From a virus: 64,000 bases of DNA. Below, piece after piece: positions 31,917 to 35,829 of the stretch. The notes beneath the pieces were generated by a model, which was not told the origin of the DNA, did no database searches, and was given only the letters and a program-made list of their open reading frames with translations. The stretch lies in IMG/VR virus record IMGVR_UViG_3300036770_005084, positions 32,001 to 96,000 of that record; one strand, 5' to 3'. A program made the translations under genes and the position numbers. Every line of letters starts with the position of its first letter. The first letter of the stretch is position 1.

Positions 31917-32924
31917 ATGGATTTTTTAAAAGATATTGTTAAAGAAATTGGAGGAGAATACACACAACTTGCTGCAGACATTGATGAAACAGAAACTTAT
32001 GTTGACACAGGTTCATACATTTTTAATGCATTGGTTTCAGGTAGTGTATTTGGTGGTGTATCTGGGAATAAGATTACTGCTATTGCTGGAGAGTCTAGCA
32101 CTGGAAAAACTTTCTTCAGTCTCGCTGTTGTTAAGAACTTCCTTGATAATAATCCCGATGGGTATTGTCTCTATTTTGATACTGAGGCTGCTGTAACCAA
32201 ATCTTTATTGCAAAGTAGGGGTTTGGATATTACAAGAATTGTTGTTGTGAATGTAGTAACAATTGAAGAATTTCGTTCAAAGGCACTTAAGGCAGTAGAT
32301 TTATATCTAAAGAAGAAAGAAGCAGAACGTAAACCATGTATGTTTGTTCTTGATTCTCTTGGAATGCTTTCTACTGAGAAAGAAATTGATGATGCTTTAA
32401 ATGAAAAGCAAGTTAGGGATATGACTAAATCTCAACTTGTCAAAGGTGCATTCCGGATGCTAACCTTGAAACTGGGGCAGGCAAAAATTCCAATGATTGT
32501 CACTAACCATACCTATGATGTTGTTGGTTCTTATATTCCCACTAAAGAAATGAGTGGTGGATCTGGACTTAAATATTCTGCTTCTACAATCATTTATCTC
32601 TCTAAGAAAAAAGAGAAGGATGGAACTGAAGTCGTTGGAAATATTATTAAAGCAACCACTCACAAATCTCGTTTAAGTAAAGAAAATAAAACAGTCGAAT
32701 TACGTTTGTATTACGATGAACGTGGTCTGGACAAATACTATGGTTTGTTAGAACTAGCAGAAAAGTATGAAATCTTTGTAAAATCTGGTACTAGATATCA
32801 AGTTCCGGACGGAACTTCTCAATATGGTAAAACTATTATGGAGAATCCTGAAAAATATTTTACTGAAGACGTAATGCAAGCATTGGATGAAGCAGCACAA
32901 AAAGAATTTTCGTATGGAGGATGA
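31917..32924 (+). CDS. uvsX: RecA-like recombinase UvsX
   Basis: [26 protein letters not shown]. Confidence 0.97.
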
Positions 32925-33550
32925 TGGAAAGGGTTGAAACTACAATTCTCAGAAACTTAATCTTCAATGACAACTATTGCAGAAAAGTTTTACCTTTTAT
33001 TAAAAATGAATATTTTGAAGAGATTGATGAACGGGTAATATTTGAAGAGATTTGTAAATTTATTCTTTCCTATGATAATCTTGCTACAAAAGAAGTAATT
33101 TTAATCGAAACTGAAAATAGAACAGATATCACAGAAGATATCTATAAGAAAATCTGTGATTATATTACTTCCTTAGATGATATATCTGTAGATCAGCAAT
33201 GGTTAATTGATACAACAGAAAAGTGGTGTAGAGATCGGGCAATATATCTTGCACTGATGGAAAGCATCAAAATTGCTGATGGGCAAGATGAGAAAAAAAG
33301 TAGAGATTCCATTCCATCAATATTGCAAAATGCACTTGCTGTAAGTTTTGATGACCATATTGGTCATGATTATTTGAATGATTACTTAGAACGATATGAG
33401 ACATACCACAGAAAAGAAGACAAAATTCCGTTTGATTTGGAATATTTTAATAAAGTTACGAAAGGTGGTTTACCTAATAAGACTCTCAATATCGCTCTTG
33501 CTGGTTGTGTTCATCCAGAAACCAAAGTTAAAATTAGGTTTAAAAAATAA
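32921..33550 (+). CDS. gp41: gp41 helicase N-terminal half (195 aa) fused to 14-aa split-intein N-fragment
   Basis: gp41 N-domain to KTLNIALAG, then [14 protein letters not shown]-stop. Confidence 0.92.
33506..33547 (+). mobile_element. Split intein N-fragment (IntN, block A only)
   Basis: Cys1-V-H-P-E-T-K-V matches intein block A, exactly at the Walker A break. Confidence 0.85.
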
Positions 33551-33576
33551 TAAATAATTTAAATGGAACAATAAAA

Positions 33577-33948
33577 GTGTATTTCAAGGAGTTTTTATTA
33601 GAATCCAAAAAAAGTTCAATATCTCATTTTTTGGCGTTTATAAAAAAAGAATTAAAACTATCTAATTTACCTAAAATTATTATAATAGATGATCCAAAAT
33701 TTTCAATAGTTAATAAAACTTTTGGAACATTTGATATTGATGATAATTGTATTAGAATACAAGTTTCTAAAAGACATAAATTGGATATTTTTAGAACTCT
33801 TGCTCACGAAATAATTCATTATAATCAAAGAAAAAGTGGAAAAGAACTTAATGGTAATGATGGGAGTGTAGATGAAAATGAAGCAAACTCAAGGGCAGCA
33901 GTTATATTGAGAAAATATACAAAAATTATTGATAATCACGGTTATTAA
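33577..33948 (+). CDS. HExxH zinc-metallopeptidase-like protein inside the fractured gp41 locus
   Basis: RTLAHEIIH plus downstream ENEAN; GTG start; TAAATA upstream; FKEFLLE N-terminus. Confidence 0.75.
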   Translation: MYFKEFLLESKKSSISHFLAFIKKELKLSNLPKIIIIDDPKFSIVNKTFGTFDIDDNCIRIQVSKRHKLDIFRTLAHEIIHYNQRKSGKELNGNDGSVDENEANSRAAVILRKYTKIIDNHGY

Positions 33949-34613
33949 TTTATTTTTTTAACTTTAGAATTTGGTGCTGGTTCTCCTGTCCCAAATTTCC
34001 ATCCTTCATTTAGTTTAATATCAATATCTTCTGGAGGTATTCTTTTCCATCCCTTTGTCCCCGGTAAGTGCATTACTTTCTTACCTTTGTGTGCTTTTCC
34101 TCCAAGAGATGCTCTTTCTTGTCTTCCTTGATTGGATGCCCAGTAATTAAACTCTTTGGATGCTCTTTTTTTGCCTCCAAGAGATGCTCTTTCTTTTCTG
34201 CCTTCTTCTGTGCTCCAATAATAAAAATTTTTAACTTTATCGTTTAGATATTCTTGTTTTTGAGTTTCTATTCCTCTAATCATCCACTCTTTTCTTTCTT
34301 CTACTGGTGTTGAAAAGAAACCAAGTTGATTATCTCTACAAAACTCTCCTATTATTTTTCTATGTTGTGGTGATAAATTCGCACCTAACATTTTCATAGA
34401 CCTCAAATCATTTGGATTTTTATAAATCTTCCAAAGTAAATAATGTGCTATGATATGTTCTCTAACATTCAAGTATGTAAGGTTGCAATCATCATCTGTT
34501 CCTCCCATATGTTTAGGAACAATATGATGCTCGTGTAGTCCTGAATATTTCTTATAGTTTTCTCTTCTTGACTTATTACCTTCGCATAAGTTAGAATAGA
34601 TACGATCAAACAT
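33945..34613 (-). CDS. Free-standing HNH homing endonuclease
   Basis: HEHHIVPKHMGG.DD..NL..L..REHIIAH; C-terminal tandem ERASLGGK repeats. Confidence 0.9.
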   Translation of the reverse strand: MFDRIYSNLCEGNKSRRENYKKYSGLHEHHIVPKHMGGTDDDCNLTYLNVREHIIAHYLLWKIYKNPNDLRSMKMLGANLSPQHRKIIGEFCRDNQLGFFSTPVEERKEWMIRGIETQKQEYLNDKVKNFYYWSTEEGRKERASLGGKKRASKEFNYWASNQGRQERASLGGKAHKGKKVMHLPGTKGWKRIPPEDIDIKLNEGWKFGTGEPAPNSKVKKIN

Positions 34614-34641
34614 TCCCTGTCCCTGCTACTGCTAATACTAT

Positions 34642-34649
34642 TATTTATA
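34642..34649 (-). promoter_or_regulatory. Late promoter TATAAATA for the HNH gene
   Basis: Plus strand tatttata is TATAAATA on minus, 28 nt before the HNH ATG. Confidence 0.8.
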
Positions 34650-34653
34650 CAAA

Positions 34654-35028
34654 ATGTGGATTGAAAAAGAAACATCAATTACTGAAATCAAAACATTACT
34701 TGATAATGGATATGAGGTAGAAGTTGATTCGCCTGATGGATATGTTCCAGTCAATTTCTTTATTAACAAAGGAATGTATGATGAATATGTTTTAAAGGTT
34801 GATGGTGAAGAACCCATTAGGTGTAATGCCGATCATTTATTTGAAACATCTTTTGGGTGGATGAAAGCATCGCATCTTTGTGGAAAATATCAAACAAATC
34901 ATTTTCTAACGAAGAATGGTTATAAACTTGGTAGTGTTTTTAAAACGGGAAATCAAATACCTATTGTTGATATTAATGTAAATCATCCAAATCATAGGTA
35001 TTATACTAATCAAGTTTCTTCTCATAAT
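34654..35028 (+). mobile_element. Split intein C-fragment (IntC, blocks B, F, G)
   Basis: SPDG, IRCNADHLF (block B), IVDINV..HRYYTN (block F), SSHN + Thr(+1). Confidence 0.88.
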
Positions 35029-35829
35029 ACTGGTGTCGGGAAATCTTTATTCATGTGCCACATGGCTAGCTCCGTCCTCTTGCAGGGGAGGAACGTTCTC
35101 TACATTACACTTGAAATGGCAGAGGATAGGATTGCTGAAAGAATTGATGCAAACCTACTAAATGTAAATATTAAAGATATCCCAGATCTGAGTAAAAATA
35201 TATTTGAGAAAAAGATTAATAATCTAATTAGTAAGACAAGTGGGAAGTTAGTCATTAAGGAATATCCAACTGGATCTGCTCATACTGGTCACTTTAAAGC
35301 ACTTTTGAATGAACTATCACTAAAGAAATCCTTTAGACCAGATATTATCTTTATTGACTATCTAAATATTTGTTCTTCTTCTAGATATAAAAGCAACTTC
35401 TCTGTAAATTCATATAGTTATATTAAAGCAATTGCAGAAGAATTGCGTGGTCTGGCAGTAGAATTTAATGTTCCTATTGTATCGGCAACGCAAACAACAC
35501 GAAGTGGATATGGTAATTCTGATGTTGAACTAACGGACACTAGTGAATCTTTCGGTCTTCCAGCAACTGCAGATCTAATGTTTGCTCTCATTAGTACTGA
35601 AGAGTTGGAAAATCTTGGACAGATTATGGTAAAACAATTAAAGAATCGTTACAATGATCCAACCGTCAATAAAAGGTTTGTGATTGGTATTGACCGTGCA
35701 AAAATGCGGTTGTATGATTGTGAACAATCTGCTCAGCAAGATATACTTGACTCTGGACAAGATGAAGAGTATGATACTGAAGAGCATTCTAATTCAAAAA
35801 GAAAATTCGCAGGGTTTAATTTTTCATGA
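34654..35829 (+). CDS. gp41: 125-aa split-intein C-fragment fused to gp41 helicase C-terminal half (266 aa)
   Basis: ..SSHN|TGVGKS; LYITLEM, IFIDYL, SATQTTRSG, SESFGLPATAD, QLKNRY. Confidence 0.93.
   Translation: MWIEKETSITEIKTLLDNGYEVEVDSPDGYVPVNFFINKGMYDEYVLKVDGEEPIRCNADHLFETSFGWMKASHLCGKYQTNHFLTKNGYKLGSVFKTGNQIPIVDINVNHPNHRYYTNQVSSHNTGVGKSLFMCHMASSVLLQGRNVLYITLEMAEDRIAERIDANLLNVNIKDIPDLSKNIFEKKINNLISKTSGKLVIKEYPTGSAHTGHFKALLNELSLKKSFRPDIIFIDYLNICSSSRYKSNFSVNSYSYIKAIAEELRGLAVEFNVPIVSATQTTRSGYGNSDVELTDTSESFGLPATADLMFALISTEELENLGQIMVKQLKNRYNDPTVNKRFVIGIDRAKMRLYDCEQSAQQDILDSGQDEEYDTEEHSNSKRKFAGFNFS

Follow-up and report, generated by a model that had tools for sequence, protein, structure and literature searches.

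A probable split intein with a 14-residue N-terminal fragment in the P-loop of gp41 helicase from an uncultured cyanophage

A helicase gene divided within its ATP-binding loop

The stretch of DNA analysed here (the window) covers 64,000 nucleotides (nt), positions 32,001 to 96,000 of IMG/VR virus record IMGVR_UViG_3300036770_005084, and carries a gp41 helicase gene that is broken in two inside its Walker A motif, with what appear to be the two fragments of a split intein at the break. The parent record comprises 155,231 bases and has an estimated completeness of 76%. The N gene (32921–33550, + strand) encodes 209 residues: an N-extein of 195 codons ending ..LAG (32921–33505) and, directly after it, an N-terminal intein fragment (IntN) of 14 codons that begins with Cys1 and runs into a stop codon (33506–33550), followed at once by a second TAA (33551–33553). 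The C gene (34654–35829, + strand) encodes 391 residues, of which the first 125 form the C-terminal intein fragment (IntC; 34654–35028), with a block-B-like CNADH (N..H), a block F and a block G ending SSHN. Next comes TGVGKS, the remainder of the Walker A motif, whose Thr (Thr+1) opens a C-extein of 266 codons plus stop (35029–35829) that matches the DnaB_C domain in Pfam (PF03796, E = 1.3e-16). Between the halves lie a small GTG-initiated gene (ORF123; 33577–33948, + strand) and, tail-to-tail with it and overlapping it by 4 nt, a free-standing HNH homing endonuclease gene of 222 codons (33945–34613, antisense to gp41). An initial annotation of the window had described the same two halves and an atypical split with an IntN much shorter than the IntC; both the listing of open reading frames (ORFs) and the raw sequence bear this out.

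Without the intein pieces, the two exteins add up to 461 residues (195 + 266). In BLASTP comparisons with the intein-less gp41 of Synechococcus phage S-SRM01 (459 residues), N-gene residues 2–196 align with residues 1–195 and C-gene residues 118–390 with residues 187–459, and the S-SRM01 protein is continuous over the junction site (..ALAGTGVGKS..). Removal of the intein is therefore predicted to restore the Walker A motif exactly as it stands in an intein-less cyanophage gp41, in agreement with the 461-residue helicase and AG-TGVGKS junction anticipated in the initial annotation, which was also right that the SGY site occupied by gp41-1 (P-SSM2 position 356) is uninterrupted in the C gene. 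Matches in isolated phages (519 records) are in all cases limited to the exteins, or 48% of the query. Polymerase (gp43) and UvsX genes lie upstream of the split gp41 and a MazG gene downstream, an order shared with S-SRM01. As no DnaB_C match other than the C gene was found in the whole 155-kb record, we take the split gp41 to be the necessary helicase of this phage.

Identity, fold and predicted activity of the intein

The element is easily overlooked. Pfam searches with both gene products returned DnaB_C and no intein model, and PF14890 had no match anywhere in the 155-kb record. Recognition came solely from PDB and profile searches; a search with intein models had been proposed at the outset, and those of Pfam failed. 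The window's IntC matches the split intein VidaL (6vgv_A) with E = 4.6e-9, and a contiguous metagenomic allele (L047:4926-5396) matches it from end to end, Cys1 to terminal Asn, with one flanking residue on either side (E = 1.8e-13). Ankyrin-repeat matches to IntC residues 10–45 were treated as spurious.

With 26 contiguous relatives as input, AlphaFold2 gave a model of the contiguous allele (L047:4932-5390) whose mean predicted local distance difference test score is 91.7. Its top Foldseek match is again VidaL (6vgv; template modelling (TM) scores 0.86/0.90, root-mean-square deviation 1.5 Å, 30% identity), followed by RecA, DnaB, gp41-1, NrdJ-1 and DnaE inteins; all of the top matches are inteins. 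The model places intein residues 7–13 and 19–24 (model strands 13–19 and 25–30) in a hairpin and residues 14–18 in a loop. The natural break falls in this loop, after the second strand (the S1 position), and the VidaL break aligns there too. Across the 29 loci of our conservation alignment, the N-terminal nucleophile (the Cys at N-gene codon 196) is invariant, as are C-gene residues H61 (block B), H124, N125 and T126 (Thr+1), and the rest of the IntN core is invariant or nearly so. Judged from sequence and model together, the element is a class-1 HINT intein, an S1-split relative of VidaL and not a new kind of intein.

Several features suggest that this intein is maintained for its activity. 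Both exteins and the IntC are under purifying selection, with median ratios of nonsynonymous to synonymous substitution rates (dN/dS) of 0.26 for the IntC (1100 pairs) and 0.12 for the C-extein. The IntN has a net charge of +4 and the first 30 residues of the IntC one of −6, which fits the electrostatic pairing described for split-intein fragments (PMC2677866), and in the two most divergent loci (L077 and L080) IntN and IntC have both changed together. We infer that the intein still splices. As we picture it, two polypeptides would be made, one an N-extein tailed by a basic 14-residue IntN that supplies strands β1 and β2, the other a C-extein headed by an acidic-fronted 125-residue IntC; the intein pieces would dock into one HINT domain, in which Cys1, the block-B His, the terminal His-Asn pair and Thr+1 would carry out protein trans-splicing to yield a 461-residue helicase with an intact P-loop. 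The earlier proposal that an essential helicase requires trans-splicing thus gains comparative and structural support, and an essential replication enzyme would appear to rely on post-translational ligation within its own ATP-binding loop.

Could the pieces instead act as a non-covalent clamp only, or could splicing have been lost in the 14-residue variant, leaving a two-chain or non-functional helicase? Such a reading can draw on the fact that splicing is deduced from sequence and that the window's IntN is two residues below the common form, but we consider it improbable. Every residue needed for splicing is invariant, among them Asn125 and Thr+1, for which a clasp would have no use, and with the break inside the Walker A motif a 139-residue domain must leave for the loop to form. 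Further, residues past position 14 vary freely between alleles and lie in the modelled loop, and a 14-residue IntN recurs in a second contig (L009).

A survey of 80 IMG/VR loci bearing the IntC places the window's allele among many others. Six of these loci have contiguous alleles, 59 have split alleles with an insert between the halves, four have split alleles without one (a 5-nt gap or overlapping stop and start codons) and 11 are truncated by contig ends. A 16-residue IntN is by far the commonest among the split loci (34), followed by lengths of 17 (16 loci) and 18 residues (seven); 20 residues occur twice, and 15, 19 and 23 residues once each. The 14-residue form occurs at one surveyed locus, L009, in addition to the window. 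IntN positions 1–14 are conserved and later residues are free to vary between alleles, which suggests that the latter are dispensable. In metagenomes at large, 846 protein clusters match the IntC region, and the exact C-gene protein of the window is found on four contigs. The search for contiguous and equally split homologues called for in the initial annotation thus found both kinds. Among 50,697 phage records searched by tblastn with the IntC, no isolate had the gp41 allele; the only matches were UvsX and TerL inteins at no more than 34% identity.

These numbers bear on whether the split gene could be a pseudogene in decay or a product of faulty assembly, on a contig that is itself defective or chimeric. 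The source is a metagenomic virus contig with no isolate behind it and is 76% complete, which lends that suspicion some grounds. We nonetheless regard it as very unlikely given the 59 IMG/VR loci with the two-gene layout, the 846 clusters, the purifying selection on exteins and IntC and the recurrence of the exact C-gene protein. Misassembly had been named at the outset as an outcome that would overturn the split-intein proposal; the recurrence of the architecture in dozens of independent metagenome contigs argues that it is neither chance nor misassembly.

Contiguous metagenome alleles of about 600 residues carry an intein at the identical site (P0073, P0103 and P0109). In one of these, P0073 (598 residues), the loop at the split site is five residues shorter than in other contiguous alleles, and this protein may be a re-fusion that followed loss of the endonuclease cassette. 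Another protein, P0097 (594 residues, on a 219-kb contig), combines a contiguous P-loop intein with a gp41-1-type IntN at the SGY site, so that two gp41 intein sites can be occupied together.

Taken as a whole, we consider it very probable that the window comes from an uncultured T4-like cyanophage whose gp41 P-loop hosts a class-1 intein with a natural and atypical split, with splicing as described above and an origin as proposed below. Several points weigh against this interpretation. Splicing of the window's allele is a prediction, and its 14-residue IntN lacks two residues kept by most alleles and may splice less well. The fold was modelled on a contiguous relative, whose IntC is about 85% identical, and not on the window's two chains. 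The block-B Thr is replaced by Asn (N58, invariant in the aligned loci), and no Shine-Dalgarno sequence was found in the raw sequence before the ATG of the C gene. Finally, with the record about 76% complete, a second helicase may be encoded elsewhere in the genome.

Origin of the split and mobility of the locus

In the commonest form of the split allele, a gap of about 685 nt holds an antisense HNH gene whose 3′ end overlaps the last codons of the IntN; this gene is present in nearly all split loci with an insert. Comparison of junction DNA with the contiguous allele places the cassette within the first of two Trp codons (Trp17). The left junction reads TG+A, a stop codon, and the right junction AT+G, a start codon. 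A single insertion in this codon therefore furnished the N gene with its stop and the C gene with its start, leaving a 16-residue IntN. In the history that comparison of the alleles shows, a contiguous mini-intein came first, an antisense HNH cassette then entered its Trp17 codon to give the TGA that ends the N gene and the ATG that opens the C gene, and in the lineage of the window ORF123 subsequently entered between the IntN and the 3′ end of the HNH gene, trimming the IntN from 16 to 14 residues.

The HNH protein of the window matches phrog_655 (homing endonuclease; E = 1.3e-16) and, weakly, PF01844, and has relatives among the free-standing endonucleases of T4-like phages, one of which is a neighbour of gp41 in S-SRM01. 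In that phage, the free-standing homing endonuclease (L001:2436-3017) lies between uvsX and the intein-less gp41, and the region of its HNH motif is 48% identical over 56 residues to the product of the window's gene. At two loci (L015 and L036), the HNH gene is reduced to a remnant. In five others (L011, L023, L063, L067 and L068), a gap of equal size holds another HNH gene, about 35% identical, next to an 18-residue IntN, and at L064 the HNH gene is on the + strand; replacement or renewed insertion of the endonuclease seems to have happened several times.

The position of a T4-type late promoter motif suggests when the endonuclease is made. In the window, TATAAATA lies on the HNH strand at 34642–34649 (− strand), 28 nt upstream of the HNH start, with an AGGGA Shine-Dalgarno-like element between the two. 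Of 60 loci with an insert, 56 carry the motif shortly before the HNH start and on that gene's strand, and at L064, with its + strand HNH gene, the motif is likewise on the + strand and upstream of the gene. Because this position is conserved even when the gene is flipped, the endonuclease is probably expressed late. The motif is informative solely through its position and conservation beside the HNH gene, as it is not enriched across the window (13 occurrences against 11.6 expected). Twelve of the 13 exact copies in the window are on the + strand; the lone − strand copy is the one upstream of the HNH gene. A generic scan for sigma-70 promoters and terminators gave results at chance level.

Group I introns bearing endonuclease genes occur in T4-like phages and in cyanophage psbA, and an alternative account of the locus is that the 1.1-kb gap is removed from RNA, as a group I intron or something similar, to give a contiguous intein. 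We consider this extremely unlikely. Rfam has no match at E values up to 1 over 33300–34900, so that no intron RNA core was found. Moreover, the gap consists of two protein genes that converge, the second being antisense to gp41, and three alleles (L030, L071 and L073) whose halves lie 5 nt apart or overlap at the stop and start codons are still two ORFs. Both strands of the HNH leader, which doubles as the leader of the C gene, are less structured than shuffled controls, with z = +2.0 for the HNH leader. The initial annotation had listed RNA-level removal as a possible refutation; the Rfam result and the near-gapless two-ORF alleles contradict it.

At many loci, an extra + strand gene lies between the IntN stop and the 3′ end of the HNH gene. 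In the window, L009, L016 and L060, ORF123 occupies the identical position. It belongs to a cyanophage family of 123-residue proteins labelled by JGI as ImmA/M78 peptidases, with 80 homologues, one of them in Synechococcus phage B3; its HExxH motif and weak match to phrog_87 (E = 1e-4) are consistent with a small metallopeptidase. Eight other loci (L003, L007, L010, L012, L015, L021, L022 and L029) carry different + strand genes, of 124–278 residues, at the position of ORF123. A phrog_3708 domain, to which no function is assigned, is common to 7 of 10 tested genes of this gap, which looks like a hotspot for accessory genes. The left junctions of these insertions replace the residues after position 14, giving IntN tails that end at 14 to 20 residues. 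The comparison of alleles thus shows the 14-residue IntN to be a derived truncation of the 16-residue form, produced by insertion of ORF123 and equal to the conserved core.

Comparison of the window with L009 in 150-nt steps shows that the locus has moved as a block. Identity is 60–75% in uvsX and in both gp41 exteins, rises to 85–100% over about 33400–35050, reaches 100% across ORF123 and falls to 71–79% directly past the intein. Intein, ORF123 and HNH gene have therefore been exchanged between otherwise well-diverged phages and constitute one mobile unit, most likely spread by endonuclease-driven homing.

The resulting series of alleles, with a contiguous intein, a single insertion that supplies stop and start, loss of the endonuclease and capture of extra genes, documents nearly every step in the birth of a split intein and puts the fractured-gene model of Dassa et al. 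to a clean test in nature. A bolder interpretation, which we regard as possible but somewhat unlikely, is that 14 residues are the minimal natural IntN still able to support trans-splicing, the shortest known, and that the gap between IntN and endonuclease is a landing pad that captures unrelated accessory genes, a cargo that intein homing then spreads among cyanophages; that cargo would be the ImmA-like metallopeptidase in the window and phrog_3708-domain proteins elsewhere.

Relation to known split inteins

The closest structural counterpart is VidaL (6vgv/6vgw; Burton et al. 2020, cited in PMC13014065), which shares with the window's intein a homologous HINT domain, Cys1, the terminal His-Asn, a Gly before the intein and a Ser/Thr-Gly after it, and whose break lies in the same loop, past the second strand, with an ultra-short IntN. 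The two differ in that their identity is about 30%, the VidaL IntN has 16 residues compared with 14 here, and residue +1 is Thr here. The initial annotation had likened the window's intein to the TerL type; membership in the class with a short IntN stands, but the nearest relative is VidaL, as TerL inteins are cut one element later. A Lake Vida 'T4-like helicase' was reportedly described by Neugebauer et al. in 2017 as the source of an atypical intein. The split intein that interrupts the UvsX P-loop in Pseudomonas phage PA5oct seems a nearer relative of VidaL than the gp41 allele of the window is, and the VidaL host gene is thus probably not gp41.

PA5oct is a cultured example of the wider family. 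Its uvsX is represented by an N gene of 81 residues (with a 17-residue IntN), an ORF of 477 residues and a C gene that begins with the IntC. In its record (NC_071039.1, L002:1260-4266), the Walker A motif is split by a VidaL-like intein, the annotated 'UvsX-like recombinase' is the C half and an 81-residue 'hypothetical protein' the N half. The record also states that the C-half product was seen by electrospray ionization tandem mass spectrometry, and a cultured system thus exists for the VidaL-like family. In a search of representative proteins, the IntC matched 254 clusters at E values up to 0.001, 126 of them over nearly its full length; 45 of these start with the IntC and are thus split at the same point as the window, 68 contain it internally and 13 are fragments without a C-extein. 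In nearly all of the 126, the IntC is followed by the remainder of a P-loop, Thr/Ser-Gly/Asn-x-Gly-Lys or Ser/Thr-Gly-Lys. TerL inteins of cultured phages were weak tblastn matches.

The 14-residue IntN is very short, as first noted, and the margin over known systems is small. PMC13014065 gives 16 residues for the VidaL IntN and the S1 split position for both VidaL and PolB16. At 15 residues, the IntN of PolB16 OarG is the shortest characterized natural one (PMC10189870), and natural atypical IntN fragments range from 15 to 37 residues (PMC13014065, PMC10189870). The form described here is only one residue below PolB16 and is derived from a commoner 16-residue one. Like the window's intein, PolB16 OarG is naturally S1-split with a very short IntN, but it is cysteine-less (Ser1/Ser+1), resides in a PolB polymerase, has an IntC of 168 residues and is only a distant structural match to the L047 model (8cpn, TM ~0.55). 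AceL-TerL and GOS-TerL, which come from phage-like metagenome DNA, are likewise naturally split with a short IntN; they are cut at S2, after the first helix, with IntN fragments of 25–37 residues and the large terminase as host (cited in PMC13014065 and PMC11766414). Protein semisynthesis calls for short IntN pieces, and here many orthologous IntC partners with Thr+1 are on offer.

Our literature search, whose coverage did not extend to Burton 2020, Sekar 2022 or Neugebauer 2017, found no paper on a split intein in the P-loop of a cyanophage gp41. The fractured genes of Dassa et al. (2009), which include gp41-1 to gp41-9 (PMC2677866), are the nearest parallel in genomic organization, with adjacent halves, a split intein, a free-standing homing endonuclease between them, split alleles that lack the endonuclease and a late-promoter element beside it. 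In contrast to the window's allele, gp41-1 to gp41-7 occupy position 356 of P-SSM2 gp41 (SGY) and have a canonical split with a long IntN, and the endonucleases in those genes are GIY-YIG or Vsr-like and on the same strand, whereas that of the window is HNH and antisense. The hairpin of Dassa et al., which sequesters the ribosome-binding site of the endonuclease and holds the late-promoter element, is absent from the window, where the leader folds worse than shuffled sequence and the motif itself is present. Set against these systems, the gp41 allele introduces no new mechanism; its interest comes from the full run of evolutionary intermediates and from a 14-residue minimal IntN that natural variation has defined. 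It is a new, mobile and conserved member of a VidaL-like, P-loop-specific, S1-split family.

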